NCBI GenBank assembly: GCA_017396125.1
Contig: JAFQMX010000040.1
Location: 1-54,982, forward strand
Length of the DNA: 54,982 nucleotides
From: Clostridia bacterium
GTDB lineage: Bacteria > Bacillota > Clostridia > Christensenellales > Pumilibacteraceae
Direction: 5' to 3'
A program made the position numbers and the translations under genes. The stretch's first letter is position 1. Each line of letters starts with the position of its first letter. The notes beneath the pieces were generated by a model, which made no database searches, was not told the origin of the DNA, and worked only from the letters and a program-made list of their open reading frames with translations. Shown here piece by piece: positions 13,529-40,234 of the stretch.

Positions 13529-14719
13529 ATGGAAATCAGCAAAAGAGCGCAAGGAATTGCTCCTTCGCTTACATTGGAAATCACTGCTAAAGCAAAGGCT
13601 ATGAAGGCTGCAGGCAAAGACGTCGTTTCGTTCGGCGCAGGTGAACCTGACTTCAATACCCCTGACTATATTGTTGAGGCTGCAAAAGAAGCACTCGCAA
13701 AGGGTGTTACCAGATATACTGCGGCAAGCGGTACGCCTGAAGTTAAAAAGGCTGTTTGTGAAGCGCTCAAGGCGGACGGTATGTCCTATGAGCCTAACCA
13801 AATCGTAGTTTCTAACGGCGCAAAGCATTGTCTTACCAACGCTTTCCTTTGTACCGTTAACGAAGGCGACGAGGTTATTATTCCTGCTCCGTTCTGGTTG
13901 ACCTACCCAGAGCTCGTTAAGCTTGCGGGCGGTATTCCTGTTATTTTGAAGGCTAAGAAAGAAAACGGCTACAAAATCACCGTAGAGGATCTCAAAAATA
14001 CCATCACCCCTAAGACCAAGGCTATTCTTCTTTGCAACCCTTGCAACCCATCCGGTATCGTTTACAGCAAGGAAGAAATCTTCGAGTTCGCTGCGTTCCT
14101 CGAGGACAAAGATATTTACATCATCAGCGACGAAATTTACAACAAGCTTTCTTACGACACCGAGGTTGTTTCCATCTCTACCTATTCGGAAAAGATTAAG
14201 GAAAAGACCATCGTTATCAACGGTGTAAGTAAGTCTTACGCTATGACCGGTTGGCGTATTGGTTGGTCGGCAAGTAATCCTAAGCTCGCTAAGGCTATGG
14301 GTAGCTTGCAGAGCCATTGTACTTCTAACCCTAACAGTATCGCACAGTACGCTACCGTTGCTGCGTACACCAAGCCAGAGGGTAAGGAATTTATCGACAG
14401 TCTTTACGGTGTGTTTAAGGAAAGACGTGACCTTATGGTAGACGTTCTCGGCAAGATGGGCGCAGAAATCATCAAGCCTCAGGGTGCGTTCTACGTAATG
14501 GTAGACGTTAGCCGTTACTTTGGAAAGAAATTCAACGGCGAGCATATCGACAGCGCACACAAGATTGCTATGCTTCTTATCGATAACTACGATATGGCAG
14601 TTATTCCTTGTGAATCCTTTGGCGCGGACAACTTTATCCGCCTCAGCTACGCTATCAGCAAAGAGGATATCGTAAAAGGTCTCGACAGACTCGACGATTT
14701 CTTTAACAAAATTGCTTAA
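13529..14719 (+). CDS. pyridoxal-phosphate-dependent aspartate aminotransferase
   Basis: SD GGAGG before ATG 13529. SFGAGEPDF, NPCNPSG and SKSYAMTGWRIG (PLP-Lys) class-I aminotransferase motifs. Confidence 0.9.
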   Translation: MEISKRAQGIAPSLTLEITAKAKAMKAAGKDVVSFGAGEPDFNTPDYIVEAAKEALAKGVTRYTAASGTPEVKKAVCEALKADGMSYEPNQIVVSNGAKHCLTNAFLCTVNEGDEVIIPAPFWLTYPELVKLAGGIPVILKAKKENGYKITVEDLKNTITPKTKAILLCNPCNPSGIVYSKEEIFEFAAFLEDKDIYIISDEIYNKLSYDTEVVSISTYSEKIKEKTIVINGVSKSYAMTGWRIGWSASNPKLAKAMGSLQSHCTSNPNSIAQYATVAAYTKPEGKEFIDSLYGVFKERRDLMVDVLGKMGAEIIKPQGAFYVMVDVSRYFGKKFNGEHIDSAHKIAMLLIDNYDMAVIPCESFGADNFIRLSYAISKEDIVKGLDRLDDFFNKIA

Positions 14720-14732
14720 TAGTAAGTAAAAG

Positions 14733-14785
14733 TACGGCGATAAAGAACGATTGTTTTTTTGTCGCCGTAATTTTATATTTTTTGC
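14733..14785 (+). terminator. terminator after the aminotransferase gene
   Basis: TACGGCGA (14733-14740) / TCGCCGTA (14762-14769), followed by T-rich sequence. Confidence 0.55.
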
Positions 14786-14892
14786 TTGATCTGATGCGAA
14801 TTTTTTGGTTTTTGACAAAAATTTAGCATTAGGTTAATAATAATTTCTTATAGTTAGTAATATTTTTATAATCAAAGCGTGAATTACGCAAA

Positions 14893-23714: not shown

Positions 23715-23798
23715 CTAGTAAAAACAAGCGTTTTTGGTTGAAAAATTTGGGCTGATAATTTGGCTGGGTGGCTACGAGGATAGATTTTGGGAGGGAAA

Positions 23799-24872
23799 AT
23801 GAAAGTAGCGGTGTTTTTTGGCGGGCGTTCGTCCGAGCACGATATTAGCGTTTTGACGGGGATTCTTACCGTCAATTCCATAAAGGAGCACGAGGTGTTT
23901 CCTATCTATATAGGTAAAGACGGAAGGTGGCGGTATTCACCAAAGTTTACTTCGGTAAACGCGCTGGACAAAAGGTTTAAGGAGGTGTGCTTGCACCCAT
24001 TTGACAAGGGACTTTTTACTCTCGGCGGAAAGCGAATTTGCAATCTTGACGTTTGTTTAATTTGCTGTCACGGCGCGTACGGAGAGGACGGCGCACTGGC
24101 AGGCGTGCTGGAGCACAGCGATATTCCTTATGCGCCGGGTGGTGTTTTGTCGGGTGCGGTGGGCATGGACAAGGTTACGCAAAAGCGAGTATTTCGTGAT
24201 GCGGGAATAAGCGTTTTGGATTTCTTTTCGGTGGAGAAATTTGACTACCGCGAGGGGATTTTTGATTACTCGGCCGCGCTTAAGGATAAATTTCCGGTAA
24301 TCGTAAAGCCTTCGTCGGCAGGGAGCAGTATCGGAATAGGAATTGCGAGGGATTACGCGGAGTTTTTTGCGGTTGCGGACAAGGCGTTTGCTTACGACGA
24401 CCGAATTATCGTTGAGCACGCCCTGCAGGATTACAAGGAATACAACTGCGCGGTGCTGGGCATGGGAGATACTTTGGTCGTCAGCCAAATCGAACAGCCC
24501 GTGAGCAAAAAGGAGTTTTTGGATTATAGCGAAAAATATTCGTATTCGGGTGGGGCGCAAAGGATTTTTCCTGCTGAAGTGGATGAGAATTTGCGCGAGC
24601 TCATGCAGGAGCAGGCTAAGCTGGCTTTTCGCGCGCTGAAGTGCTACGGTGTTGCGAGAGTGGATTTTTTGTATGACGGTCAGCTTTATCTCAACGAAAT
24701 AAACACCGTGCCCGGCTCTATGTCCAGCTATTTATTTGACTACGACAAAATTAATTTTTCTGCGCTTAGTAAGAGCCTTATTGATATCGCAATAAAGGCT
24801 CACACCGAAAAATCCAAGCTAAAGCGGGCGACCGACGGACAGCTTTTGCTTGATACGCGACTTTTGAAATAA
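23799..24872 (+). CDS. ddl: D-alanine--D-alanine ligase
   Basis: MKVAVFFGGRSSEHDISV, HGAYGEDG, ATP-grasp core and EINTVPG motif. SD GGGAGGG. Confidence 0.9.
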   Translation: MKVAVFFGGRSSEHDISVLTGILTVNSIKEHEVFPIYIGKDGRWRYSPKFTSVNALDKRFKEVCLHPFDKGLFTLGGKRICNLDVCLICCHGAYGEDGALAGVLEHSDIPYAPGGVLSGAVGMDKVTQKRVFRDAGISVLDFFSVEKFDYREGIFDYSAALKDKFPVIVKPSSAGSSIGIGIARDYAEFFAVADKAFAYDDRIIVEHALQDYKEYNCAVLGMGDTLVVSQIEQPVSKKEFLDYSEKYSYSGGAQRIFPAEVDENLRELMQEQAKLAFRALKCYGVARVDFLYDGQLYLNEINTVPGSMSSYLFDYDKINFSALSKSLIDIAIKAHTEKSKLKRATDGQLLLDTRLLK

Positions 24873-25003
24873 AAAAGAGTATTTTGTCGGTAAACGAAAA
24901 GCGCCACCAAAAAATAAATTTTAGTGGCACAAAATAAATAAGTGGACTAACTGTTGTCCGCATAAAAGTGCTATAGTGTTGGTGTAATAAGGAGCCAACA
25001 GAA

Positions 25004-25513
25004 ATGAAAAACTGGATTTTAACTTTATTTACCGTAAACCCTCTGCTGGAGCGCATGACCACGCTGATTGACGAGCGGGTAGAGTCGCTTGCGCTCTCGC
25101 CGATAGGGAATACTTTGGACAAAATGGAGAATATTATTTCGCTTAACGACAAAAAGGTTGCGCTTATCAATCTGCGCGTTATGTACGAGAGCATTTGCAA
25201 AAAGCTGGATGAAGACGAGTTTGCTTTGGTCAAGGGTTGCGCTTTTGGCAAGTCAGTAAGGGACATGTCGGGGTATAGATCCGCTTCGACCTGCTACCGA
25301 AAGCTGAACAAGGCTATCAAAAAGGCAGAGGCTATTTTGCTGGGTTTGGGCTACGACGAGCAAAAAATGGATTATTATAGGCAGTTTCCGTATATCAGAG
25401 CAAAACTTTCGGCTATAAAAAGACGAAATAAAGAAGGCGTGGAGCCTATACGAAACGCCGAACTTCAAGCTAGTTCGGCTTTTGCGCAGTATATTTGCGC
25501 TCAGTCACCGTAG
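25004..25513 (+). CDS. phage-type sigma-70 region-4-like transcriptional regulator (ArpU/DUF1492-like)
   Basis: LDEDEFALVKGCAFGKSVRDMSGYRSASTCYRKLNKAIKKAEAIL looks like a sigma r4 HTH. SD AAGGAG. Confidence 0.45.
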   Translation: MKNWILTLFTVNPLLERMTTLIDERVESLALSPIGNTLDKMENIISLNDKKVALINLRVMYESICKKLDEDEFALVKGCAFGKSVRDMSGYRSASTCYRKLNKAIKKAEAILLGLGYDEQKMDYYRQFPYIRAKLSAIKRRNKEGVEPIRNAELQASSAFAQYICAQSP

Positions 25514-26307
25514 CGTGATTTGCGCTTTTCTCCACCGCGAAATATCAGTAACATTATTATTACGGCAGGCACGCACAGCGTACCGATAAAGATTCCCTCG
25601 AGAGCGTCAGGTTTTATTGATTGCTCTTTTTCTTCGTCCTTTTTTACCACCTTTTCGATAATATTGGCGGTTATGGGCTGGGGAGAAATTTGAGTGGAGT
25701 ACACGTAGCCGTGATAACTTTGCCCGTATCTGACGAAATACCAAGTGCTTATTCCTGCAACGATATCGTCGCCTGGTACCGTTCCGTAGTAGATTCCGCT
25801 GCTAGCGTCGGGAATAACGGTGATTATGGGCGCGTCGGCGTGCGGTGATGAACGCAAATTCACGGGATGCGTATCGTTGTTGGTAATGAATGTGGGCGAA
25901 GCGTATTTGGTTACGGGTTCGTAATCAACAATCTCCACCGAGGTTTTTTCAACGAAGCCTTCGAGGTCGAGGTACGATGCAAGATAATACTGCTCGTTCT
26001 CGCCCGTTACCGTTACGAAGTAGGTGGCAGGGAGCGAGGTAATGACCGAGCCATCGTCGTCTAGCAGTTTTGCGCCGCTACTGCCGATATACGCATAGTC
26101 CAGCCTGCCGTTGCTTTTGGTGTCAGCAACGTCGGAAAATGATTGTGCGTGTGCGGAAAGCGGAAGATTTTTATTGATAGCAGTTGCATAAAGTTGAGGA
26201 ATCTCATTAGCGAGCACGAGATTTTTGCGACAAACGTCTACTGCCGGTGGGAAGTTTAGCGAAAATGCGACGACGAGCGCGGTCAAAAAAAGAAAAATAC
26301 TTTTCAT
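25501..26307 (-). CDS. secreted/membrane-anchored protein with SH3-like repeats
   Basis: N-terminal signal peptide, two SH3_3-like segments (YFVTVTGE..YYLASY; WYFVRYGQSYHGYVY) and a C-terminal TM helix. Confidence 0.55.
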   Translation of the reverse strand: MKSIFLFLTALVVAFSLNFPPAVDVCRKNLVLANEIPQLYATAINKNLPLSAHAQSFSDVADTKSNGRLDYAYIGSSGAKLLDDDGSVITSLPATYFVTVTGENEQYYLASYLDLEGFVEKTSVEIVDYEPVTKYASPTFITNNDTHPVNLRSSPHADAPIITVIPDASSGIYYGTVPGDDIVAGISTWYFVRYGQSYHGYVYSTQISPQPITANIIEKVVKKDEEKEQSIKPDALEGIFIGTLCVPAVIIMLLIFRGGEKRKSRYGD

Positions 26308-26349
26308 ACCTACATTTTAGTACCTTATTACGCAAAAAAGGAGGCGGTT

Positions 26350-27786
26350 TTGATAGAAAAAGCGGAGATTATGACAACTACCGCTACGCAAAGAGAGATT
26401 ATTACCAGGCTTCGCCTCGTGGAAAAAAGGCTGGCTGATTACAAAAGCAAAAACAGGTTGGAATTTTACAATAAGGACAAGGTGCACGAAAAGCAAATGC
26501 AGTTTCACCGCTCGACCAAGAAAAATCGCTGGGTGTTTGGCGGTAACCGCAGCGGAAAGACAGAGTGCGGTGCCGTGGAAGCGGTGTGGCGCGCAAGAGG
26601 TATTCATCCCTTTGACCAAAATCGCCACCAAGTGGACGGCTGGGTGGTGAGCCTGACCAGAGAGGTGCAAAGAGAGGTTGCGCAAAGAAAAATTTTGCAT
26701 TACCTCAACCCCGACTGGATAGAAAACGTCGTTATGGTAAGCGGTAGGGCGGATTACCCCGAAGGCGGTGTGATAGATTACATTACCGTCAAAACCGTTA
26801 CAGGAGGCAAAAGCAGAATTTGCTTTAAGTCCTGCGAGATGGGCAGAGAAAAATTTCAGGGAGCGTCGCTGGATTTCGTATGGTTTGACGAAGAACCACC
26901 CGAGGACATTTACGACGAGTGTCTGATGCGAGTTATGGACAAAAAAGGCTACGTTTTTGGAACAATGACTCCGCTAAAAGGCCTAACCTTTGTCTATTAC
27001 CGCATCTTTCTAAACGGCGACGACGAGGATATTTGGCATATCTCGATGGAGTGGGCGGACAACCCTTATCTTGATCAAAACGAAGTCAAGAAAAAGTCGG
27101 CAACTATGAGCGAGGACAGCTTGCTTAGACGAAGATACGGAAAGTTCGTGGGGGTTAGCGGACCCGTTTATCCGGAATTTGACCAAAGCGTGCACGTAAT
27201 CGAGCCGTTTGATGTGCCAAAAGATTGGTACGATAATATTTCGATAGACCCCGGACTCAGCAATCCGCTGTCCTGCCATTTCTACGCCCGCGACGGTGAC
27301 GGCAACGTTTACGTTATTGCCGAGCATTACCAAAAGGACAAGGACGTTTGCTATCATGCCGACAGGATAAAGGAAATTTGCGCTTTGCTAGGGTGGAAAA
27401 AGGATCGCTCGGGGAGAATAAACGCGCTTATCGACAGCGCCGCCAACCAACGCACACTTGCCTCTCAAAAAAGCGTAGCGGAGTTGTTTTTTGAGCAAGG
27501 AATTGCCGTTTGTCCCAAGGTTAACAAGGACGTTACTGCGGGAATCCACATCGTAAAGCGGTTTTTGGGCGAGAAAAAGCTGTTTATTTTCAAGACCTGC
27601 ACCAACATGATCCGCGAAATTAAAGGGTACGTTTGGGGCGAGGGCGAGTCGCCAAAAAAGGTGGACGACCACGCTATGGACGAGCTCAGATACTACCTCG
27701 CGTCGCTCGTGCCCAAGAAAAAAACGGAGAGTGAAATAGCGCGCGACAAACAAAAATTGCTTAAACACGGGAGGAAATATGGATGA
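26350..27786 (+). CDS. phage terminase large subunit
   Basis: Walker A GGNRSGKT, Walker B-like LDFVWFDEE, nuclease motifs SIDPG / LIDSAANQ / DDHAMDELRYY. TTG start 5 nt after AGGAGG. Confidence 0.85.
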   Translation: MIEKAEIMTTTATQREIITRLRLVEKRLADYKSKNRLEFYNKDKVHEKQMQFHRSTKKNRWVFGGNRSGKTECGAVEAVWRARGIHPFDQNRHQVDGWVVSLTREVQREVAQRKILHYLNPDWIENVVMVSGRADYPEGGVIDYITVKTVTGGKSRICFKSCEMGREKFQGASLDFVWFDEEPPEDIYDECLMRVMDKKGYVFGTMTPLKGLTFVYYRIFLNGDDEDIWHISMEWADNPYLDQNEVKKKSATMSEDSLLRRRYGKFVGVSGPVYPEFDQSVHVIEPFDVPKDWYDNISIDPGLSNPLSCHFYARDGDGNVYVIAEHYQKDKDVCYHADRIKEICALLGWKKDRSGRINALIDSAANQRTLASQKSVAELFFEQGIAVCPKVNKDVTAGIHIVKRFLGEKKLFIFKTCTNMIREIKGYVWGEGESPKKVDDHAMDELRYYLASLVPKKKTESEIARDKQKLLKHGRKYG

Positions 27787-28042
27787 ATTGTATGAGGCGG
27801 TGCGCAAAAAGGCTGTGGGGTACAAGGTTACGGAGACGGTTAGCGAGTACACCGCGGAGGGTGGGACACTGACTATGGTCAAGCAAAAGATTACCGAAAA
27901 GGAGGTTGCTCCCGACCTTGCCGCACTCAAAATGCTAAAAGACGAGTTTGGAGCGGAGTACGCCGATATGAACGAAGAACAGCTTTTGGCAGAAAAAAAG
28001 AGACTTTTAGATATGTTAAAGGAGGAAAACTATGAAGCTTGA
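27779..28042 (+). CDS. small phage protein (87 aa), possible small-terminase-like fragment
   Basis: Overlaps the TerL stop. SD GGGAGG. The GYKVTE...KEVAPDLAALKMLKDEFG segment is reminiscent of C-terminal parts of P27-type small terminases (recollection only). Confidence 0.4.
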   Translation: MDELYEAVRKKAVGYKVTETVSEYTAEGGTLTMVKQKITEKEVAPDLAALKMLKDEFGAEYADMNEEQLLAEKKRLLDMLKEENYEA

Positions 28043-28247
28043 AAAAAACACGCGAAAAATTAAATGCGAAATGGGCGCGTGCAAAAACAACGCCGATTAC
28101 ACTATTGGGCTCAAGCGCGTGGGACTAAAAAACAGTATTCACGTTTGCGAGGCGTGCCTAAAGGAGCTGTACGAGCTTACGGGCGCGTTGATTATTCCGA
28201 AAAGCGTGGAAACGGCTAAGGAAAAAAGGAGAAAAAATGGAAACTAG
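28032..28247 (+). CDS. small 4-Cys zinc-ribbon-like protein (71 aa)
   Basis: CEMGAC ... CEAC pairs. SD AGGAGG. 11-nt overlaps with both neighbours. Confidence 0.5.
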   Translation: MKLEKNTRKIKCEMGACKNNADYTIGLKRVGLKNSIHVCEACLKELYELTGALIIPKSVETAKEKRRKNGN

Positions 28248-29859
28248 AGAGCAGTACGAGGTTTTTGAGATAATTGACGACTTTCGCCGTCGCGCTGCAA
28301 AACGTGCGTCGCTTGATGCGGGCTGGAATCTCAATTACGAATTCGTAAAAGGCAAGCAGTTTAGCCGAATAAATCCCGATTTGTCGCTTTCGGAGAGCGA
28401 AAGGGATTTTTATTGGCAGCAGCGCACGGTGTACAACCATATTGCGCCTATCGTAGAGGCAAGACTGTCCAGACTTGCGCGCATCAATCCCGTTATGAGC
28501 GTGCGCCCGATTTCGGACGACGCGGACGATATCAGCGCGGCAAAGCTTTCGTCAAAAATTCTTTCGTCGCTCCGACACAAGCTGCAGTTTGATGAAAAAA
28601 TCAACGAAGGCACTATGTGGGCGGAAATTGTGGGTAGCATTTTTTATAAGGTAGTTTGGGACACCGAGGCAGGTGACGTTCTCGCTCTTGACGGCGAAAG
28701 CGCTTATCGGGCAGGCGAGGTGAGAATCGAGGTTTGCCCGCCGTTTGAGATTTATCCTGCTTCGCTCGAGCAGTCCACCATCGAGGAGCAAAGCAGTATA
28801 ATGCACGCAAAAAGCGTACCGCTAGCAGAAATTTTTGACCGCTGGGGCGTTTTGGTGGAGGGAAAAGACGGCTACGCGCTGGTTATCGAAAAGTACGAAA
28901 GACCAAGCGCCACTAATCCCAACGGACGACTTTGCATAGTGGCAGGCGACAAAATGGTATACAAGGGCGAGCTTCCGTACGTTATCGGTGAGGACGGAGA
29001 GAGGGCGTTACCTTTCGTTAAGCAGGATTGCTTGAAGAGCGCGGGCAGCTTTTTTGGCGTGTCGGTGGTGGACAGGCTTATTCCGCTCCAAAAGGCGTAT
29101 AACTCGGTAAAAAACCGCAAGCACGAGTTTCTTAACAGGCTGGCTATGGGCGTACTGGCGGTGGAGGACGGTAGCGTTGATATTGAGAATTTGGAAGAAG
29201 AGGGCTTGAGTCCGGGCAAAATTCTCGTCTATCGCATGGGCTCCACTCCGCCTAAGTTTCTTGACGGAGGCAACGTTCCTGAGGAGTTTAACGACGAGGA
29301 GGAAAAGCTACTCAACGAGTTCGTTACGGTGAGCGGTGTGAGCGAGATTTTGAGCGCAAGCGGAATTTCTTCGCGCATAACCAGCGCCACGGCTTTGCAG
29401 CTTCTTATCGAGCAAGAGGAGGAACGCATTAATCTTACGGCGGTTAACCAAAACAACGCGCTGATAAAAATTTCAAAATTTGCCTTGCGATTGTACAAGC
29501 AATTTGGCAAGAGCATGCGCCTGACTAAGCTCGTCGGAAAGACCAACGCGGCGGAGATTGTCAAGTGGAAAAATTCGGACATTGGCAGTGACGATATCGT
29601 ATTCGAAGCGTCGTCCAGCAGCTCGCACACGGCAAGAAGAGAGCTTCTTTTTGAGACGGTAAACGCGGGATTGTTTGACGGCGAGAGCAAAATTCCTGCC
29701 TCGACCAAGAGCAAGTTACTTGAAATTTTGGGATTCGGAAGCTGGGAATTTGCGGACGGTAGCGAAGATAGCCAAGCGAAACAAAAGGACGAAATGCCCC
29801 AAGATGCCACGCAGACAATGGCTACTAAGGCTGACGGCGAAAACAGCTCCGTGTCGTAA
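28237..29859 (+). CDS. phage portal protein
   Basis: 540 aa, immediately after the terminase block. Size, position and acidic C-terminus are typical of portals. SD AAGGAG. Confidence 0.7.
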   Translation: METREQYEVFEIIDDFRRRAAKRASLDAGWNLNYEFVKGKQFSRINPDLSLSESERDFYWQQRTVYNHIAPIVEARLSRLARINPVMSVRPISDDADDISAAKLSSKILSSLRHKLQFDEKINEGTMWAEIVGSIFYKVVWDTEAGDVLALDGESAYRAGEVRIEVCPPFEIYPASLEQSTIEEQSSIMHAKSVPLAEIFDRWGVLVEGKDGYALVIEKYERPSATNPNGRLCIVAGDKMVYKGELPYVIGEDGERALPFVKQDCLKSAGSFFGVSVVDRLIPLQKAYNSVKNRKHEFLNRLAMGVLAVEDGSVDIENLEEEGLSPGKILVYRMGSTPPKFLDGGNVPEEFNDEEEKLLNEFVTVSGVSEILSASGISSRITSATALQLLIEQEEERINLTAVNQNNALIKISKFALRLYKQFGKSMRLTKLVGKTNAAEIVKWKNSDIGSDDIVFEASSSSSHTARRELLFETVNAGLFDGESKIPASTKSKLLEILGFGSWEFADGSEDSQAKQKDEMPQDATQTMATKADGENSSVS

Positions 29860-29912
29860 ATTTCGCGACACGGATGCGAAAATTCGTGACCATGCAAACA
29901 AAATTTGCGACC
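29858..29912 (+). repeat. three 13-nt direct repeats with exact 21-nt period (AAAWTTYGYGACM)
   Basis: AAATTTCGCGACA (29858), AAAATTCGTGACC (29879), AAAATTTGCGACC (29900). In the portal-scaffold intergenic region. Confidence 0.85.
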
Positions 29913-29943
29913 AAATCAATAAAATTATTAAGGAGAAATAGCT

Positions 29944-30342
29944 ATGCAAGAAATTATCGAAAACCAAACTTCGATTTTTGACGCTGGAAACGAAACCGCA
30001 GTAGAGGATACCGCGGTAGAAGATGTCGCGCCAGAAATCACCGAAAACAAGGTTGATGCTCAAAATACTGGCGACTGCGAAGTACAACCAAGCGCCGAAA
30101 ACGAAAAAAAGTATTCGTCTATCGAGAGTCTTTTGTCGGACGAGGCTTTTTTGGAAAAAAACGTGTATGCCAACAAACGCATATGCGAGGAAATAATAGA
30201 CAGATACATTGTTTCGCTGAAAAACGGAATTCCCCCTAGAGTTATGGGTGCGGGCGGAAAAGGGGCCCCAACCGCAAAAGTACCCACCACTCTTAAGGAA
30301 GCAAAGTTGCTTGCCGAAATAATGTTTTCGAAAAACGACTAA
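29944..30342 (+). CDS. acidic scaffolding-like protein
   Basis: 132 aa. Strongly acidic N-terminal half, helical C-terminal half. Located between the portal and capsid genes. SD AAGGAG. Confidence 0.5.
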   Translation: MQEIIENQTSIFDAGNETAVEDTAVEDVAPEITENKVDAQNTGDCEVQPSAENEKKYSSIESLLSDEAFLEKNVYANKRICEEIIDRYIVSLKNGIPPRVMGAGGKGAPTAKVPTTLKEAKLLAEIMFSKND

Positions 30343-30420
30343 AATTGCATAAGCATTTTAATTTCAAAAAAAATCTCGTGCAATTAAAAAAACAAAAAAA
30401 TCAATCAAAAGGAGAAAATT

Positions 30421-31575
30421 ATGTTGACTTTGAATAATGCAGAAAATGCATTGAAAACCATTTATCTTGGAGCGGTAACCGATCTTCTTAACGTAAAGAC
30501 CAATCCGCTTCTTTCTAAAATCGAGCAGACCACTTCCGACGTTTGGGGCAAGGAAATAAGAAAAGCCGCAAAGTTCGGTATCAATGGCGGTATCGGTGCC
30601 GGTGACGAGGACGGCAATTTGCCTGCTCCGCATTCTTCCGAGTACGTACAGTTCGTTACTACCCTCAAGAACCTTTACGGTCAAATTGAGATTTCGGACA
30701 AGGCAATCAGAGCCAGTCAGGACGGAAGAGGAGTATTTACCGATCTTCTCAACAGCGAACTCGAGGATTTGCTCAACGCATCCAAGTTCAACCTTGGCCG
30801 TATGCTTTACGGCGACGGCACCGGAAGACTTGGCGTGTTTAAGACCACCGACGTAAACCCTTGTTACGTTTCCAACGTGCAAAACTTTACCGAGGGTCTA
30901 GTCGTAGACATTTATACCACGGCAGGAGTTATGGTGGATTCGGGCTTGGTAGTAACTAAGGTTGACCGCCAGGAAAAGACCGTTACCTTTAACCGTGAGC
31001 CACAGGGCATGGCTATCAACAACGGAATTTACGTTCAGGGTAGCAAGGGCAAGGAAATTACCGGTCTCGGCGCTATTTTTGGTAGCGGCGACCTTTACGG
31101 ACTAAGCCGTGACCAGTACAAGTGGCTTACTCCGTACAACAAAAACGTTGCGGACGTGTTGGACGAAACTATGATTCAGGAGGCGATTGACCATCTCGAA
31201 ATCACCGCAGGCTCTACCGTAGACTTTATTTCTTGCTCGGCTGACGTTAAGTATGCTTATCAGGAATACATGGCGCAGTACAAGCGCAATATCGAAATGA
31301 CCGAAATCAACGGCGGATTCAAAACCATGTCCTTCAACGGAATTCCACTCGTATACGACAGATTCGTGGGCGAAGGAACTATGTATTTGTTGGATACTTC
31401 TTGCTTCCACTTGCACCAGCTTTGTGATTGGAGATTCCTTGAGTCCGAAAACGGAAAGATTTTACGTCAGACTCAGGGCAAGCCAACCTATACCGCAACT
31501 CTTGTCAAGTACTGTGACCTTATTTGCGACAAGCCTAACGGCCAGGGCAGACTCATTAACATCATGAGAGCCTAA
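30421..31575 (+). CDS. HK97-fold major capsid protein
   Basis: 384 aa, positioned after the scaffold-like gene. Segments such as LYGQIEISDKAIRAS and RMLYGDGTGRLG resemble conserved capsid-family blocks. SD AGGAG. Confidence 0.7.
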   Translation: MLTLNNAENALKTIYLGAVTDLLNVKTNPLLSKIEQTTSDVWGKEIRKAAKFGINGGIGAGDEDGNLPAPHSSEYVQFVTTLKNLYGQIEISDKAIRASQDGRGVFTDLLNSELEDLLNASKFNLGRMLYGDGTGRLGVFKTTDVNPCYVSNVQNFTEGLVVDIYTTAGVMVDSGLVVTKVDRQEKTVTFNREPQGMAINNGIYVQGSKGKEITGLGAIFGSGDLYGLSRDQYKWLTPYNKNVADVLDETMIQEAIDHLEITAGSTVDFISCSADVKYAYQEYMAQYKRNIEMTEINGGFKTMSFNGIPLVYDRFVGEGTMYLLDTSCFHLHQLCDWRFLESENGKILRQTQGKPTYTATLVKYCDLICDKPNGQGRLINIMRA

Positions 31576-31577
31576 TT

Positions 31578-31898
31578 ATGGTGGGATGCGTCATAATAAA
31601 AAACGATCTCTTTGACATTGACAAAAGACTAAAAGAAATAGACCGCGGGTATTTCGCGGTCTATAATTTTAGGAAAAAGCGCTTCGAGGTGCATCACAGC
31701 GGACAAAAGCACACCTATTGTCTTACCGTTCCGTATGACACATTGGACGAGAGAACGGTAAGGCTGGTGCGAAAAACGCGACTTGAACGTATGGACGAGT
31801 TGCAAAAGGAGATCGAGCGTGAAAACGCTAAAAAGGAAAAAGAAATAAGAAATCAGGTAATTAAACAAGCCCAAAAGGCTGTTGAGGAGGTTTTATGA
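31578..31898 (+). CDS. phage structural-module protein, unknown (106 aa)
   Basis: Starts 2 nt after the capsid stop. Lys/Glu-rich C-terminal helix. No motif recognised. Confidence 0.45.
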   Translation: MVGCVIIKNDLFDIDKRLKEIDRGYFAVYNFRKKRFEVHHSGQKHTYCLTVPYDTLDERTVRLVRKTRLERMDELQKEIERENAKKEKEIRNQVIKQAQKAVEEVL

Positions 31899-32449
31899 CA
31901 GGGAAAAATTGCATAGCGACCGCCATGACTTACGCAGGCCTGGACGATATTAAAAAATCATATCTTTCAGCTTCGCCGTCCGAGCAAGCAACGGATACCG
32001 CGCAAAAGTTAAAGGTGTTTTTGCAGGGCGTGCTAAACGAAATTGCCATAGGCTTCGTGAAACTCAGCAAGACGGAAAAATTTGAGTTTGAGGGCGGAAT
32101 TTTGCCGTACCTTACCATAAATCCGCGACTTTACGAGGTGCTTTGTGTAAAGCACGGCAAACGAAAAATTTATCCGCAAAGGACCGCAGACGGACTTGCA
32201 CTGGACGGCGGCGAATACGAAATAACCTACTGTTATCTGCCAGAGGCGGAAGAGGAGCAAGATATTCCATTTGGCAGGCTGATTAGCGAGGAGTGCATAG
32301 CGTACGGGATTGCAAGCGAATACTTTTTGGCTATGGGCATGGCGGAGGAAGCTTCGGCCTTTGACCAAAAATTCCGCGCGTCGCTAAAAAACACCGTGGC
32401 TTATCACGCAAGGCCGGGTTGCATAAAAGAGCGAGCTTGGCTGTCGTAA
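31895..32449 (+). CDS. phage structural-module protein, candidate head-completion/adaptor (184 aa)
   Basis: ATGA overlap. SD GAGGAGG. Its size and its position after the capsid gene suggest a connector role (inference only). Confidence 0.4.
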   Translation: MTGKNCIATAMTYAGLDDIKKSYLSASPSEQATDTAQKLKVFLQGVLNEIAIGFVKLSKTEKFEFEGGILPYLTINPRLYEVLCVKHGKRKIYPQRTADGLALDGGEYEITYCYLPEAEEEQDIPFGRLISEECIAYGIASEYFLAMGMAEEASAFDQKFRASLKNTVAYHARPGCIKERAWLS

Positions 32450-32458
32450 GGAGGAAAA

Positions 32459-33736
32459 ATGAAATACTCTGGAAGAAAAAAGCTATACTTTAAGCCCGAT
32501 TTTACAAAAGGCGTGGATTACGGTAGGAGCGAGTATCGACAGGACGATGCGGCGGTGGATTTGAGCGGATTTGATTATGCGGACGGCTCGCTTAGGACGG
32601 GCTACGGAATAGTGGCTGGCGATTTAGTGGAGAGCGGAAGCAAGGGCGTTTGGATGTACCGAAAGGACGATACGGTTATGTGGGCAAAAGATGGCGTAGT
32701 AAAGTACACGGATGCGGACGGAAACACGCAAATTCTCGGCGGAATAAGCGTTTCGGGACAGACCTATGGCGTCAATCTCAAGGCCAAGGGAAAGGACACG
32801 ATAGTTATTTATTCAGAAAATGGCACGGTCTATTGGTGGGACGGAGAAAAGGCTCACGCTTCGACGTTGACGGAACCGATCGTCTCTGTGGAGGCGTTCG
32901 ATTCCAGAATTTTCGTTGCCGTCAAGGGTGACGAAAGACTTTTTTACAGTTCGCCGTACAACCCCGTGAACTTTACGGAAGAAGGCTTGGATATGTCGGG
33001 CGAGCAGGGCGCAATAAACAAAATTATTGCGTTTAGGGACGGACTGTATATGTTTATGGACTACGCGGTATACCGCATAACCAAAAGCGAAAGCTACGGC
33101 TACGGCGTTAATAAGCTTTATCTTGAGGGCGGGAAAATTTACGCCGACACGGCTTGCGTTTGCGGAAACACTATGATTTTTATGACGGACAGCGGATTTT
33201 ACAGCTTTGGTGGAAGTGCGCTTAAGCCCGTTATGAAGGAGATTTTTCCGCTTATCGACTCGTCACAGGGTGCATCAGCCGCTTACCACGACGGAAAATA
33301 CTTTTTGTCGGCAAAAACCACGGAGGGCACGGTGCTGGTGTGCTACGATTTTGAGCACGCCACCCTTACCAAGAATATCGGTGTGGGCAGGCTGTTTTGC
33401 ATAGGCGACAGGCTGTTTTGCTACACTAATTCCATGCTGGGTGAGGTTGTAAAAAACGGAAGCTATTACGGCAACCCGATTCCGAAAAGGTGGGTTTCGC
33501 CCACGATGGATTTCGGAACTTCGCGGCTAAAGTGCATACGCTCGGTGTGGTTAAGCGTGGAGTGCCCGATAACCTTTACCGTCAGCGTCGACGGAGTAAA
33601 ACACGAATTTGTTGCGGACCAAAACACTACCGAAATACGCATGAATTTGCGTGGCAAAAGGATATCGTTTTCGATTTTTGCGTCGGGGCTGGAGGCGCTC
33701 GTGCATCCGTTTACGGTATGCTACTCCGTGGTGTAA
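32459..33736 (+). CDS. phage structural-module protein, unknown beta-rich (425 aa)
   Basis: SD AGGAGG. Repetitive Gly/Tyr/Asp beta-strand-like pattern. Last large ORF of the structural block. Confidence 0.5.
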   Translation: MKYSGRKKLYFKPDFTKGVDYGRSEYRQDDAAVDLSGFDYADGSLRTGYGIVAGDLVESGSKGVWMYRKDDTVMWAKDGVVKYTDADGNTQILGGISVSGQTYGVNLKAKGKDTIVIYSENGTVYWWDGEKAHASTLTEPIVSVEAFDSRIFVAVKGDERLFYSSPYNPVNFTEEGLDMSGEQGAINKIIAFRDGLYMFMDYAVYRITKSESYGYGVNKLYLEGGKIYADTACVCGNTMIFMTDSGFYSFGGSALKPVMKEIFPLIDSSQGASAAYHDGKYFLSAKTTEGTVLVCYDFEHATLTKNIGVGRLFCIGDRLFCYTNSMLGEVVKNGSYYGNPIPKRWVSPTMDFGTSRLKCIRSVWLSVECPITFTVSVDGVKHEFVADQNTTEIRMNLRGKRISFSIFASGLEALVHPFTVCYSVV

Positions 33737-33968
33737 TTAACAAAATAAATTGCTTGGTCGAGGCGGGCGAAAATTGGGGAGAGAGGAGAACGGAAAAGAT
33801 GAAAAAGCAGATTTGCGACTTGCCCGAAAACGTGATAATGGATGTTGGAGTTTGGTAATAAAATAAAGAGACAAACATGGCGATGTCAAGTTTTTTCCAC
33901 TACGCTCCCCAAAATAATTGACATAAACAAAAAAAGTTCCCGCATTTTACGGGGACGAAGGAGGCAAA

Positions 33969-34184
33969 ATGTGGCAGGAAATTTTCAAAATCGCCTGCGG
34001 AGACGGACTGATAGCAGCGCTGTTTTGCGCCCTGTTTTTTTATCAGCTAAAGGACGCGAGAGAACGCGAAAAGAGGTACTGCTCGCTGGTGGGCGAGCTG
34101 ACCGAGAGGCTGAAAACGGTGGACAAAATCGAGCAGGCCTGCGCCGACATTCATTTGGAGTTGAGCCGTCGTACCTTGTTTTAG
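33969..34184 (+). CDS. BhlA/UviB-family holin-like peptide
   Basis: 71 aa. One TM (GLIAALFCALFFYQL) followed by KDAREREKRY and VDKIEQ, the pattern I recall for BhlA/UviB. SD AGGAGG. Confidence 0.65.
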   Translation: MWQEIFKIACGDGLIAALFCALFFYQLKDAREREKRYCSLVGELTERLKTVDKIEQACADIHLELSRRTLF

Positions 34185-34284
34185 ACGCGCACAGGTTTGA
34201 GGTGGAGCACGCGCTGTATTTTTATAAAAAGCTGCAGCGTCTCGTAAGAGGCTGAGTAGTTGAATTTACAGCTGTGGTTTACCG

Positions 34285-34380
34285 CGAAAAAATTGCAGAA
34301 CAAAAGACGGAAAATCGTAGTGATGTCGAAAAAATTGCGCGCTAAAAAAATTCGTGGCGATTCGGCAGAAAAAATTAAGT
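34285..34380 (+). repeat. cluster of A-tract repeats (CGAAAAAATTGC x2 exactly 42 nt apart, plus related copies)
   Basis: CGAAAAAATTGC at 34285 and 34327. GGAAAATCGT at about 34309, AAAAAAATTCGTGGC at 34344, AGAAAAAATTAAG at 34367. Confidence 0.75.
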
Positions 34381-34414
34381 AAAAAAAGACGATAAACGAA
34401 CGGGAGATTTTGAT

Positions 34415-34657
34415 ATGAAAAATTTGAGGAATAAGGCAAAAACCAAGAGCTTTTGGATGATGCTCGTGGCCGCGCTGATACTGATTTTGCGCGCGTTGGG
34501 GCTGGAGCTTGAGCAAGAGCTGACGAGAATTTGCGACGCGATTTGCGGATGCTTGGTGTCGGTGGGAGTATTGACCTCACCTTTGGGTGAGAGTGAAAAA
34601 ACAGTAGAGAATTTGCCCGCGGAAGGCGCTCAAACGCAAGTTGCTACGGACGAATAA
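34415..34657 (+). CDS. phage holin (phi LC3 / Phage_holin_1-like)
   Basis: 80 aa. KNLRNKAKTKSFWMMLVAALILIL ... LVSVGVLTSP matches the NWKxRLKNKxFW...lGvxxDP pattern of that holin family. SD GGGAG. Confidence 0.6.
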   Translation: MKNLRNKAKTKSFWMMLVAALILILRALGLELEQELTRICDAICGCLVSVGVLTSPLGESEKTVENLPAEGAQTQVATDE

Positions 34658-34750
34658 AAAGTTTAATCCAAAAAAGTTGTTTTTACACTGAAATAAGCGT
34701 GCGCTGATAAAAAATGCGTGCGCTTTTTTGTGTTGTCAGCCACCTTTGCC

Positions 34751-34858: not shown

Positions 34859-35356
34859 ATGAAAGTCGGAATTTTGATGGGTTCAAAATCGGATTTGGAG
34901 GTAGTTAAGCCTTGTATCGTTACGCTCAAAAAGTTTGGCGTTGAGGTAGATGCGAGGGTTATCAGCGCGCACCGCACTCCAGACGCAGCGCACGAGTATG
35001 TGAAGAACGCGGAGAGCGACGGTATCGAGGTTCTTATCGGTGTTGCAGGCAAGGCGGCTCATCTTGCGGGCGTTATGGCAGGATACACCACGCTTCCCGT
35101 AATAGCGTTACCCGTTTCCACCAAGTTTATGGGTGGACTGGACAGCCTTTTGAGCATGGTGCAGATGCCGCCTGACGTACCTGTTGCATGCGTGGGAGTA
35201 GACGCTGGCAAAAATGCGGCGATTTTGGCGGTGCAAATGCTTGCGCTTGCGCACCCTGAGCTCAAGGTTGCGCTCAAAAATTTCAAGACCGAGATTGCGC
35301 AAAAGATTGCGCGTGACGACGCGGAATTGCAGGGCATGATGGACGAAATCAAATAA
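34859..35356 (+). CDS. purE: 5-(carboxyamino)imidazole ribonucleotide mutase
   Basis: MGSKSD, SAHRTP and GVAGKAAHLAGV motifs. Confidence 0.9.
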   Translation: MKVGILMGSKSDLEVVKPCIVTLKKFGVEVDARVISAHRTPDAAHEYVKNAESDGIEVLIGVAGKAAHLAGVMAGYTTLPVIALPVSTKFMGGLDSLLSMVQMPPDVPVACVGVDAGKNAAILAVQMLALAHPELKVALKNFKTEIAQKIARDDAELQGMMDEIK

Positions 35357-36643: not shown

Positions 36644-37306
36644 ATGAAAGCTAAAAAATACGGAAAGGGTTACAAAACACCGCCAAAAAAATTGGTGGTG
36701 CTCATCAGCGGTACGGGGTCTAATATGACGTCTATTCTTACCGCGTGCACTAATAACCGCATCAACGGTAAAGTGGTTGCGGTAATTTCGTCCAACGCCG
36801 AGGCAAAGGGGCTGATTACTGCTAAGAACCACGGCATCGACACCTACGTTTTTTCAAAAAAAGAATACGGCGATGCGCGTGATACCGAAATGGTCAAGGT
36901 TATCAGCCGCTACCAGCCCGATTTCGTAATTCTCGCAGGGTATCTGGGCATAATCACCAAGCCGCTCCTCGACGCATACCCGATGAGAATAATCAATATT
37001 CACCCGGCGTTACTTCCAAAGCACGGCGGAAAAAATTACTTTGGACTAAACGTTCACCGCGCCGTTATCGAGGCAGGGGACAAAAAATCCGGGCCAACCG
37101 TTCATTTCGTGGACGAGGGCACGGATACCGGACCTATCATCAATCAGCAAAAGGTGGAGGTCAAGAAAAACGATACGCCGGAGATTCTCCAAAAGCGAGT
37201 TTTGAAGGCAGAACATAAGCTGTTCGTCAAGACGATAAGACAGCTTTGCAACGGCAAGACCGGCGCAAGAAAAATTTACCATTACTACAGGAGGAAAAGA
37301 AGATGA
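36644..37306 (+). CDS. purN: phosphoribosylglycinamide formyltransferase
   Basis: [18 protein letters not shown] and [17 protein letters not shown] motifs. Confidence 0.9.
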
Positions 37307-38835
37307 AAAAGAGAGCGCTCCTCAGCGTTAGCGACAAGGCAGGCATCGTGGACTTTGCAAAAGCCCTCGACAAGGCGGGTTACGAAATTATTTCTACCGG
37401 TGGAACGGCGGAAATTTTGAAAAAAGAGGGACTTAAGGTTCTTCAAATTAGTGACGTTACGGGATTTCCGGAGTGCCTTGATGGCAGAGTAAAGACTCTT
37501 CATCCAGCAGTTCACGCAGGACTTTTGTACCGCAGAGATCTTCCTTCGCACGTGCAGGCGGTGGAAGAGCTGGGCATTAACTCCATAGACGTAGTGGTAG
37601 TTAACCTCTATCCGTTCAAGCAAACCGTGCTCAAGGGCTGCGACTTTGCCGAGGCGGTAGAGAATATCGATATCGGCGGACCTACCATGCTCCGTTCGGC
37701 AGCAAAAAATTATCGCTTCGTTACCGTGGTGGTAGATCCGGCGGACTATGGCGAGGTTATCGAGAGAATTAACAACGATACTATGGACGAGAGATTCCGT
37801 ATGACGCTTATGTACAAGGTTTACGCGCATACCGCAGTGTACGATTCTATGATTTCCGCGTACCTTGCGTCCCAGCTCGGCATCAATCAGCCACAGCTTT
37901 TGAGCTTGCCTTTCGAGAAAAAGATGGACTTGCGCTACGGCGAAAACCCAAATCAAACCGCAGCGTTCTACACCGATTATATGCCTGTTAAGGGCGGACT
38001 CGGCGGAGCGGAGCAGTTGCAGGGCAAGGAGCTTTCGTTTAATAACATCAACGACCTTTCGGGAGCAATCGGCTTGCTTCGTGAATTCACCGAGCCGTGC
38101 GCCGTTGCAGTTAAGCACGCTAATCCGTGCGGAGTGGCTTGCGGAGAGGATATTTTTGACGCGTATGCCAAGGCTTACGAGTGCGATCCGGTTAGCATTT
38201 TCGGAGGAATCGTTGCGCTCAACCGTACCTGCGACGAGCAAACCGCCAGCAAGATGGTGGAAATCTTCCTCGAAATCGTTGCTGCTCCTGATTTTACAGA
38301 GGGTGCGCTCGAGGTGTTTAAGAAAAAGCCTAATCTCCGCGTTATGAGAATGCCAGAAATTATGGAAAAATCTGCTACCGCAAAGGATTATAAGCGTGTG
38401 CCCGGCGGACTTTTGGTGCAGGATATCGACCTTGGGCTTTACGATAAAAACAATCTCAAAACCGTGACTGAGGCTCAGCCGTCGGCGGAAGCTCTTGACG
38501 CAATGGAGTTTGCTTACAAGGTAGTTAAGCACGTTAAATCCAACGCAATCGTTCTTGCAAAAGGCAAGCAAACGGTAGGTATCGGCGCAGGACAGACCAA
38601 CCGTATTTGGGCGGCTAAGCAGGCAATTGAGCACGCGGGTGACAGAGCAAAGGGAGCAGTTCTTGCATCTGACGCTTTCTTCCCGTTCAACGACTGCGCG
38701 GAAGCTGCTGCAGAAGCGGGTATCTCGGCAATTATTCAGCCGGGCGGATCGATTCGTGACAACGACAGCATAGAGCTTTGCAACAAGCACGGCTTGCCGA
38801 TGGTGTTCACGGGCGAAAGACATTTCAAACACTAA
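37303..38835 (+). CDS. purH: bifunctional AICAR transformylase / IMP cyclohydrolase
   Basis: [20 protein letters not shown] and VKHANPCG motifs. ATGA overlap with purN. SD AGGAGG. Confidence 0.95.
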
Positions 38836-38981
38836 AATAAATTTCTGCTTGTTTTCCCGTTTGGCAAAAACGGCGAGGAAGGGCAGTTTGCAATTTGAAT
38901 ACATTAAAATCCGAAGTTTTGCTAAAAAAACTACGGATGATACGAATAAATTTAGTAGTTAACGACAAAACGGAGTACAAA

Positions 38982-40226
38982 ATGAAAAAGATTCTCGTAG
39001 TGGGTGGTGGCGGAAGAGAACACGCTATTGCCACTAAATTAGCCGGCGACGGAGTGGAACTTTTCGCCGCTCCCGGCAATGCAGGCATTTCGCAAATTGC
39101 TACTTGCTTGCCGTATAAGGCCACCGATATCGAGGGCATAACCGCTTGGGCTGTGGAAAATCAGCCGTATATGGTAATGGTTGCGCCTGACGATCCGCTA
39201 GCGATGGGTATGGTGGACGAGCTTAACAAAAGAGGTATAAGAGCGTTTGGTCCCGACAAAAAGGCTGCCGAAATAGAGGGTAGCAAGGCTTTTGCAAAGG
39301 ACCTTATGCAAAAATACGGTATTCCTACCGCTGATTACAAAATCTTTACCGACTCGGCATCCGCTTTGGAGTACGTTTCGGGCAAGGACGGAAAGCTAGT
39401 AGTAAAGGCGGACGGACTTGCTCTCGGCAAGGGCGTAATAATTTGTAACAATCGCGACGATTCCATTGCCGCAGTAAAGAGCATTATGGAAGAAGGTGCT
39501 TTTGGCAAGGCTGGCAGCAAGGTTGTTATCGAGGAGTTTTTGCAGGGCTATGAGGTTTCGGTAATGGCGTTTACCGACGGCAAAACTGTTAGACCTATGC
39601 CACCTGCTCACGACCACAAGCGCGCTCTTGACGGGGACGAGGGACTAAATACCGGCGGAATGGGAGTTTATTCTCCGTCGCCTAGATTTGACGATAGACT
39701 TATGCAAAAGGCGATGAAAGAAATTTTCTTGCCTACCGTGCAGGCTATGAACAGCGAGGGCAGAACCTTTAAGGGCGTGTTGTATTTCGGGCTTATGGTG
39801 GACGGCGACGATATCAGAGTGCTTGAATACAACGCACGATTCGGCGATCCCGAAACTCAGGCGATACTGCCTAGACTCGAAACTCCGCTTGTGGAAATTT
39901 TTGACGCTATTATCGATCAGCGACTTGGTGAGGTTGAAGTTAAGTGGGCGGATGGATACACCGCCTGCGTAATCGTAGCTAGCGGTGGTTATCCGCTTGC
40001 TTACGAAAAGGGCAAGCCAATCGAGATCAAAAATCTCAACGACGGCACAATAGTTTTCCACTCGGGAACTGCCTACAAGGACGGAGTTTTGGTGACGAAC
40101 GGCGGAAGAGTAATGGGCGTTACCGTTACGGAAAAAGACTTGGCGTCGGCAGAAAAGGAAGTTTATTCCGAAATAAAGAAAATCACCTTTGATAAAATGT
40201 TTTACCGCAGTGATATTTGCAAATAG
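38982..40226 (+). CDS. purD: phosphoribosylamine--glycine ligase
   Basis: MKKILVVGGGGREHA, the ATP-grasp core and EYNARFGDPE. Confidence 0.95.
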   Translation: MKKILVVGGGGREHAIATKLAGDGVELFAAPGNAGISQIATCLPYKATDIEGITAWAVENQPYMVMVAPDDPLAMGMVDELNKRGIRAFGPDKKAAEIEGSKAFAKDLMQKYGIPTADYKIFTDSASALEYVSGKDGKLVVKADGLALGKGVIICNNRDDSIAAVKSIMEEGAFGKAGSKVVIEEFLQGYEVSVMAFTDGKTVRPMPPAHDHKRALDGDEGLNTGGMGVYSPSPRFDDRLMQKAMKEIFLPTVQAMNSEGRTFKGVLYFGLMVDGDDIRVLEYNARFGDPETQAILPRLETPLVEIFDAIIDQRLGEVEVKWADGYTACVIVASGGYPLAYEKGKPIEIKNLNDGTIVFHSGTAYKDGVLVTNGGRVMGVTVTEKDLASAEKEVYSEIKKITFDKMFYRSDICK

Positions 40227-40234
40227 GAGGAATT

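Follow-up and report, generated by a model that had tools for sequence, protein, structure and literature searches.

Gene content of the ddl–purE interval

The 54,982-nucleotide stretch of Clostridia bacterium DNA analysed here (the window; contig JAFQMX010000040.1 of assembly GCA_017396125.1, family Pumilibacteraceae) contains a phage-derived gene island of about 10 kb (positions 24873–34740) between the housekeeping genes ddl (23787–24872) and purE (34859–35356), both of which were confirmed by Pfam. Thirteen intact genes occupy this interval. They encode phage head, short-tail and lysis functions as well as one protein with a helix-turn-helix (HTH) motif and one with an SH3b domain (Table 1). 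The other 45 kb of the window are made up of housekeeping genes, which extend for more than 20 kb on either side of the island. The GC content of the island (0.473) is close to that of the rest of the window (0.458), GC content at third codon positions is similar, and the tetranucleotide correlation between the two, 0.956, is within the range of other 10-kb chunks. Scans of the window's open reading frames (ORFs) against Pfam, PHROG and NCBIfam revealed no integrase, replication, repressor or endolysin genes. Neither a tRNA gene nor an att-like flanking repeat was found at the island, and the Rfam scan of the window gave no match. Promoter and terminator counts were not above those obtained with shuffled sequence and, therefore, no promoter is claimed. 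The initial annotation of this locus had described phage-type genes between two housekeeping genes, uninterrupted ORFs, base composition like that of the flanks and the absence of integrase, replication, repressor and endolysin genes; all of these statements were borne out.

Relatives of the island were sought with the capsid protein in a collection of one genome per species. This search gave 292 matching stretches, the best 80 of which were used for locus comparisons. The head module starts with the large terminase, TerL, whose orthologs share 57–67% identity. Walker A (GGNRSGKT), Walker B (FVWFDEE) and C-terminal DDHAMDE motifs are all readable in its translation, in agreement with the initial view that the ATPase and nuclease motifs are intact. 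The product of the following gene, p87, is related to small terminase subunits (TerS): 30 of 31 orthologs matched phrog_309, ‘terminase small subunit’ (best E = 4.8e-8), and six also matched the TerS family phrog_23444. The match to phrog_309 is confined to profile positions ~200–262 of 319, and we read p87 as a TerS core that appears to have lost its DNA-binding part. No TerS candidate other than p87 was found. The HTH protein p169 was considered for this role and ruled out, since it matches no TerS profile, belongs to a separate transcription unit and has an HTH of the sigma-70 region-4/LuxR type.

The cysteine-rich protein p71 is encoded between the TerS-like and portal genes in 69 loci (34–63% identity). 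It matched no family in Pfam, PHROG or NCBIfam, and its cysteine pattern, CxxxxC...CxxC, suggests a zinc ribbon. An ORF of 80–230 aa is present at the scaffold position in every relative; the sequence of p132 itself is poorly conserved (9 tblastn matches, no family match), and by analogy of position this protein is a putative scaffolding protein. Orthologs of the major capsid protein (MCP) were full length in 80 of 80 cases, and close homologs of the window capsid are named ‘phage major capsid protein’. Protein p106, encoded next to it, has the invariant residues R17, D22, Y25, H39, D57 and R59 but no match in PDB, Pfam or PHROG. Thus, the two tiny ORFs, the 540-aa portal, the acidic scaffold-like ORF and the capsid protein of the initial annotation were all recovered. 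The lack of a prohead protease, which had been listed among the missing functions, is not an anomaly because P22-like phages assemble their procapsids without one.

The island had also been described as head-only, with three ORFs (p106, p184 and p425) of no assigned function. Structure searches, as had been proposed, were run with AlphaFold2 and Foldseek and revealed an adaptor and a nozzle. The model of p184 (82-sequence alignment) has a mean predicted local distance difference test score (pLDDT) of 94.6 and a predicted template modelling score (pTM) of 0.86. Its top Foldseek matches in PDB were chains from tail or portal-tail complexes of KHP30, Pa223, PhiM1, SU10, N4, LME-1 and GP4 (E from 5e-5 to 1e-3; template modelling (TM) score mostly 0.58–0.68, 0.47 for PhiM1). 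The T7 adaptor gp11 was also among the matches, and GTA (gene transfer agent) neck proteins occurred only among the weak ones (E ~0.1). Distant homologs of p184, looked up by sequence cluster, were all metagenome proteins without a name. For p425, 4 homologs were obtained by word-indexed search and 14 by profile search, which was enough for a usable model (15-sequence alignment; mean pLDDT 83.7; pTM 0.80). This model consists of a beta-propeller and a C-terminal beta-sandwich. Its best PDB matches were a Pa223 tail chain (E = 1.9e-17) and P22 gp10 (8eap_D; E = 5e-17, TM score 0.63), and other matches included a chain of the Sf6 gp8:gp14N complex, tail chains of Pan3, Pam1, VP1, GP4 and SU10, and T7 gp12. 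In BFVD, a database of predicted viral structures, the top matches of p425 were annotated as ‘P22 Gp10’. Profile searches against PDB sequences with p425, p184, p106, p87 and three proteins of related loci (DUF7934, C1 and C2, see below) gave nothing significant, and the identities of p184 and p425 were resolved by structure prediction only. Because p184 corresponds to a podovirus adaptor and p425 to a tail nozzle, the island is not head-only, and among the three formerly unassigned ORFs p106 alone still matches nothing.

Two holins are encoded at the 3′ end of the island, as noted initially, but the first of them is the 71-aa ORF of the BhlA/UviB family; gene calls for this genome and for the closest relative include it. 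The arginine-rich 137-aa ORF (33842–34255, + strand) previously taken for this holin overlaps it in another frame and is spurious. Orthologs of the second holin carry PF04531 (Phage_holin_1).

The window copy of p169 by itself had no Pfam or PHROG match. However, a profile of 24 orthologs retrieved LuxR and ECF-sigma region-4 structures from PDB chains (E ~1e-3 to 1e-5), and 8–9 of these 24 orthologs matched Sigma70_r4, Sigma70_r4_2 or HTH_23 in Pfam, so that the initial label of a sigma-r4-like regulator stands. Homologs of p169 were found in 23 loci. The gene is convergent with that of the SH3b protein and encodes a putative activator of the cluster. The SH3b gene, overlooked in the initial annotation, is located between the genes for p169 and TerL and is divergent from the latter; 57 loci have it at this position and with this orientation, full length in every case. 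Its product was ruled out as an endolysin since no catalytic domain was detected by Pfam; it could be a wall-binding partner, a receptor, or merely the product of a syntenic host gene.

Table 1. Genes of the island, with positions in the window, and DUF7934 genes of related loci, with positions in the respective locus
Feature	Position	Strand	Basis of assignment
p169, HTH protein with sigma-70 region-4/LuxR-type fold, 169 aa	25004..25513	+	Ortholog profile and Pfam matches
SH3b-domain membrane protein, 268 aa	25501..26307	-	Pfam SH3_3, E = 1.5e-7; signal peptide and C-terminal transmembrane segment in translation
TerL, large terminase, headful-type ATPase and nuclease	26350..27786	+	Terminase_6N, E = 5e-13; Terminase_6C, E = 3e-6; phrog_2, E = 1.4e-36
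p87, candidate small-terminase core fragment without DNA-binding domain, 87 aa	27779..28042	+	phrog_309 match
p71, Cys-rich small protein, 71 aa	28032..28247	+	Cysteines in translation
Portal, P22/SU10 type, 540 aa	28237..29859	+	P22_portal, E = 1.6e-9; SU10_portal, E = 4e-5; phrog_156, E = 1.2e-21
p132, acidic protein at scaffold position, 132 aa	29944..30342	+	Position between portal and capsid, as P22 gp8
MCP, HK97 fold, podovirus family	30421..31575	+	NF033394 capsid_maj_Podo, E = 3.9e-79; phrog_14242, E = 9e-52
p106, capsid–adaptor interval, 106 aa	31578..31898	+	Conserved in 78 loci
p184, predicted podovirus-type head-to-tail adaptor, 184 aa	31895..32449	+	AlphaFold2 and Foldseek
p425, predicted tail hub/nozzle, P22 gp10/T7 gp12 class, 425 aa	32459..33736	+	AlphaFold2 and Foldseek
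BhlA/UviB-family holin-like protein, 71 aa	33969..34184	+	Pfam Holin_BhlA (PF10960), E = 1.8e-14; phrog_2429, E = 6.8e-10
phiLC3/Phage_holin_1-type holin	34415..34657	+	phrog_297, E = 6.9e-6; weak TIGR01598 match
DUF7934 protein, examples	L010 14670-15611; L105 14321-15214; L106 16927-17862

Conservation, selection and gene loss

The capsid proteins encoded in the best 80 loci share 57–70% identity with that of the window. The hosts are gut and rumen Clostridia labelled as Christensenellaceae, Clostridiales or Pumilibacteraceae, the last being the GTDB family CAG-552 within the Christensenellales. Three isolates are among them, namely Pumilibacter muris, P. intestinalis and Anaerocaecibacter muris. 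Synteny of the cluster extends to at least 80 species genomes from the Pumilibacteraceae/Christensenellales, and most loci, as far as contigs permit, display the following order: (p169)–SH3b(−)–TerL–p87–p71–portal–MCP–p106–p184–p425–holins. The ddl gene is located upstream in ~25 loci, with glmS-glmM still further upstream in ~8 of them, and purE downstream in several. The closest species, whose capsid protein is 86% identical, has the same compact layout, namely glmS-glmM-ddl, island, purE-purM-purN. Integrase or replication genes were not present inside the cluster in any of the annotated relatives. The closest sequenced phages share at most 27% identity in the capsid protein and at most 31% in TerL. 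The initial annotation had allowed for a complete prophage at the same site in close relatives; these do hold two or three extra genes (C1, C2 and DUF7934), but never a full prophage.

Seventeen ‘viral’ contigs from IMG/VR (L088–L104) are short fragments of the cluster with the same chromosomal synteny, including the SH3b gene. One of them, L092, and the contig carrying the window's capsid protein originate from the same metagenome (JGI 3300029305). Viral-contig catalogues, therefore, list pieces of a host locus as viruses. In Anaerocaecibacter muris, a 100-aa Phage_integrase fragment (L105, 2055–2357) is encoded ~2 kb upstream of the cluster, with a peptidase gene between the two. This fragment could be a relic or could be unrelated to the cluster.

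Comparison of the window with the nearest species showed saturation at synonymous sites, with all ORFs intact. The ratio of nonsynonymous to synonymous substitution rates (dN/dS) was therefore calculated for eight independent close species pairs among the relatives, with unsaturated dS. The ratios ranged from 0.01 to 0.27 for TerL (0.04–0.08), p87 (0.05–0.18), the portal (0.05–0.09), MCP (0.01–0.09), p106 (0.09–0.27), p184 (0.18–0.22), p425 (0.05–0.20), the SH3b protein (0.05–0.17), C1 and C2 (0.17–0.25) and DUF7934; those of the p71 and holin genes were up to 0.31–0.43 in single pairs. A comparison of conservation and dN/dS had been suggested in the initial annotation; in addition to the synteny described above, it gave values well below 1 for every gene. 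Orthologs of p425 were full length in 70 of 70 cases. Island proteins of the window and the nearest species are 45–86% identical, and flanking housekeeping proteins 60–89%. The DNA of two strains of the window's species is 97.8% identical; over the genes from TerL to p425 inclusive they differ by 119 nucleotides but by no more than 22 amino acids, and there are no stop codons. Among 20 genomes, ddl distances correlated with those of TerL, portal and MCP (Mantel r = 0.75–0.80, p = 5e-4). These data argue for long vertical residence of the cluster, with ddl serving as a single linked marker and not as a species tree.

Two genes, C1 (~310 aa) and C2 (~590 aa), follow the nozzle gene in ~25–29 related loci (for example, L010 11401–12357 and 12341–14116, respectively). 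Their products gave weak WD40-like or beta-propeller-like profile signals only and are candidate fibre, plug or receptor-binding proteins. A third gene, encoding the coiled-coil protein DUF7934 (PF25588; ~311 aa), is located between the two holin genes in 44 related loci (examples in Table 1). DUF7934 was ruled out as the missing endolysin, being a coiled-coil, A/K/E-rich protein with no enzyme match. No homologs of C1, C2 or DUF7934 are present anywhere in the 55-kb window, and DUF7934 is also absent from the nearest species. In the tree built from TerL, portal and capsid proteins, the window and the nearest species branch together as sister to a clade whose members all possess C1, C2 and DUF7934. 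The compact form of the island is thus derived by loss from the locus. Since this form is common to two species with just 68% identity between their ddl proteins, the loss is old, and the remaining genes stayed under selection after it. Both the lineage of the window and the Anaerocaecibacter-like clade have lost C1 and C2 from the locus.

Relationship to known phage-derived systems

A GTA of Faecalibacterium prausnitzii, FpGTA, was described in Nature Communications in 2026 (preprint 2024; PMC12946183). In operon I (~10.5 kb), genes for TerL and a TerS devoid of a DNA-binding domain are accompanied by those for portal, scaffold, capsid and short-tail proteins, while a second operon, 125 kb away, contains fibre/receptor-binding protein, baseplate, holin and endolysin genes (PMC12946183). 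The particles of ~40 nm carry ~8.5–9 kb of random host DNA, and the proteins are listed in the proteomics table in the order TerL, portal, x, MCP, x, adaptor, nozzle (PDB 8eap), x, ‘TolA’ (PMC12946183). In the same study, two taxa placed by its authors in the Christensenellaceae (QANA01 and HGM11616) were reported to package fragments of 4.1 kb and 6.3 kb in a GTA-like manner, and the locus was not identified (PMC12946183). Our literature search revealed no other paper describing such an element.

The island examined here resembles FpGTA in several respects. Both are chromosomal operons of ~10 kb in gut Clostridia, conserved across the host taxon, and share the order TerL, portal, scaffold-position gene, capsid, small gene, adaptor and P22-gp10-type nozzle. 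The FpGTA nozzle was assigned to 8eap, an entry that is also among the top two PDB matches for p425. FpGTA has a TerS without a DNA-binding domain, which the TerS candidate p87 also seems to lack, and neither system possesses integrase or replication genes. The differences are as follows. FpGTA occurs in the order Oscillospirales, whereas the host of the present cluster belongs to the Christensenellales/Pumilibacteraceae. The FpGTA capsid protein (RCH50849.1) is named as a member of the N4-gp56 family, while the window capsid matches only NF033394 (NCBIfam, E ≤ 0.05), the two being compared by family name. The TerS-like gene precedes that of TerL in FpGTA but follows it here; holins are encoded inside the locus here but in the second operon there. 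The divergent SH3b gene and the gene for the region-4-type HTH protein flank the cluster in our case, and C1, C2 and DUF7934 are encoded within the cluster locus of relatives. In the window's lineage these three genes were either lost outright or relocated, which would give a split arrangement like the two operons of FpGTA. DUF7934 may be the counterpart, by analogy, of the ‘TolA’-annotated protein, the third most abundant one in FpGTA particles. Finally, particles and their DNA were demonstrated experimentally for FpGTA, whereas the present cluster is known from genes alone. It probably represents a new member of the podovirus-like type of GTA already published for Faecalibacterium, from a host order new to this type and with a capsid protein of another family, and not a new category.

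Domestication, vertical inheritance, purifying selection, the absence of a replication/integration module and the inclusion of lysis genes are features shared with RcGTA, the TerS of which lacks the DNA-binding domain, as p87 also appears to do. RcGTA of the Alphaproteobacteria, however, is siphovirus-like, with a long tail, tape measure, prohead protease, head spikes and scattered accessory loci, while the cluster studied here is podovirus-like, lacks the protease and has only adaptor and nozzle genes at the locus. Among phages, P22, Sf6 and SU10 display the same gene order (terminase, portal, scaffold, coat, gp4-like adaptor and gp10-like hub), lack a protease and have a headful-type terminase. 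In contrast to these phages, no needle/plug (gp26), ejection proteins or tailspike were recognised in the island, which also has no immunity, integration or replication region, and sequence identity to any phage does not exceed 31%. A complete P22-like prophage set (needle/plug, ejection proteins, tailspike, lysogeny and replication genes) was found neither in the window nor in the relatives.

PBSX of Bacillus subtilis is likewise chromosomal and non-replicating, packages host DNA and is released by holin-dependent lysis. It is controlled by the sigma-like factor Xpf, a possible analogue of p169. However, PBSX is a ~28-kb, myovirus-like killer particle with a contractile tail and not a short-tailed 10-kb cluster. 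Capsid-forming phage-inducible chromosomal islands (cf-PICIs) are also small and have their own capsid, portal and terminase genes, but they are mobile, possess an integrase, att sites, replication and regulation modules and a prohead protease, and lack a tail hub; none of these traits applies to the present island.

Interpretation and other features of the window

The island probably stems from a short-tailed phage of the P22/SU10 type; as a remnant fixed in the chromosome and passed on vertically, it would be kept by the host lineage as a particle-forming system of the GTA kind. Two features by which GTAs are recognised were found: chromosomal phage-derived structural and packaging genes occur without replication, integration and immunity modules, and the genes are inherited vertically with the host clade, as judged from ddl as a single linked marker, and are under purifying selection. 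Synteny, dN/dS values and divergence that tracks ddl also support the original suggestion of a domesticated, GTA-like particle-forming system.

Such a system may work in the following way. Protein p169 would switch on the rightward operon, whose promoter region is presumably shared with the divergent SH3b gene. The portal, scaffold-position and capsid proteins, whose genes were identified, would assemble into a procapsid in a protease-independent manner, as in P22. TerL, with p87 as a partner, would then fill the procapsid by a headful mechanism, by analogy with RcGTA and FpGTA; because p87 appears to have no DNA-binding domain, packaging would be little sequence-specific and would take host DNA. 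The predicted folds of p184 and p425 suggest that these proteins seal the portal and make up a minimal short tail. Release would depend on the holins of the BhlA and phiLC3 types, which would open the membrane, and the wall hydrolase would come from elsewhere in the genome or be replaced by host autolysins.

Several points weigh against this reading. DNA packaging and transfer are deduced here from the gene set, and the assignment of p87 to TerS rests on a 65-residue profile match. Homology to FpGTA, the sole relative with experimental support, is architectural; since the capsid families differ, orthology is not demonstrated. A receptor-binding protein, a P22 gp26-like channel plug and an endolysin were not recognised within the 55-kb window, and a minimal tail of adaptor and nozzle might neither retain nor deliver DNA without partners encoded elsewhere.

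One option, left open by the authors of FpGTA (PMC12946183), is that the cluster makes short-tailed particles with DNA inside, or simply sets off programmed lysis, and serves not for DNA delivery to recipients but for killing or lysis, as in PBSX, with competition, release of extracellular DNA or nutrients, or vesicle formation as the outcome. The retention of two holins at the 3′ end of the cluster, the link of BhlA/UviB proteins to bacteriocin release (phrog_2429 annotation) and the fact that no receptor-binding or ejection proteins were recognised in the window are all consistent with such a role. Lysis alone, however, does not require TerL, a TerS core, a portal, an adaptor and a nozzle maintained at dN/dS values of 0.04–0.2, and we know of no podovirus nozzles that kill as contractile tailocins do. 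We regard this explanation as unlikely but deserving of serious attention. It is rather doubtful that the cluster represents a separate, Christensenellales-wide podovirus domestication independent of FpGTA, with the window holding a further-reduced 13-gene form that truly lacks fibre, plug and DUF7934 but is still under selection. If this were the case, the particle would consist of capsid, adaptor and nozzle only and would not inject DNA in a phage-like manner; it would have another use, such as packets that protect DNA from nucleases and enter cells by a different route, or a lysis-coupled release device.

The remaining explanations are far less plausible. The initial annotation pointed to a likeness with cf-PICIs, that is, a satellite that forms its own small capsids and borrows tails and lysis functions from a helper phage. 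The compact head module with its own terminase and the absence of fibre and endolysin genes from the window would fit a satellite, but neither the window nor relatives contain an integrase, an att repeat or modules for replication or helper interference, the adaptor and nozzle are encoded by the element itself, and a syntenic chromosomal position with divergence tracking ddl is the opposite of what a mobile satellite would display. This likeness, therefore, is not upheld, and a satellite is highly improbable. Hardly any credence can be given to an inert, decaying prophage remnant produced by recent deletion. The window copy is indeed smaller than those of the sister lineages, lacking C1, C2 and DUF7934, but its genes are intact in the window, in the second strain and, despite saturated synonymous sites, in the nearest species; dN/dS is well below 1 in the eight species pairs; and the compact form, found in two species with 68% identical ddl proteins, points to an old loss with the rest under selection. 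Intact ORFs, low dN/dS, the pattern of strain differences and ddl-tracking divergence together exclude decay for practical purposes, which agrees, as do synteny and the absence of mobility and replication genes, with the earlier opinion that this is not a decaying prophage. Equally improbable is a still-autonomous temperate podophage with its replication and integration genes outside the window or overlooked among the unknown ORFs. Proteins p71, p106 and p132 are without assigned function and IMG/VR lists fragments of the cluster as viral contigs; however, these contigs have the same chromosomal synteny including the SH3b gene, more than 20 kb of housekeeping genes adjoin the island in either direction, identity to sequenced phages does not go beyond 31%, and both composition and divergence follow the host.

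Few GTAs are known, and almost all of them are alphaproteobacterial and siphovirus-like; the first report of a podovirus-like system from a gut Firmicute dates only from 2024–2026. As a GTA, the locus described here would add to this kind a second order of gut Clostridia, one that has received little study and in which hundreds of species have kept the cluster. It is also a candidate gene set for the unexplained 4–6-kb GTA-like packaging of Christensenellales in human faecal virus-like particles. The prediction is directly testable, since three of the carriers, Pumilibacter muris, P. intestinalis and A. muris, are in culture.

Outside the island, the stretch between positions 8000 and 11000 of the window has a low GC content (0.37–0.40). 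Two ORFs in this region, 9580–10593 (−) and 13451–14818 (−), had no Pfam match and are apparently unrelated to the island. Downstream of purN, two antisense ORFs of 539 aa (37285–38904, −) and 725 aa (41384–43561, −) overlap purine-biosynthesis genes, the latter being located inside a 1239-aa ORF of the + strand (40217–43936). In all likelihood, both are non-coding shadows of genes on the + strand.

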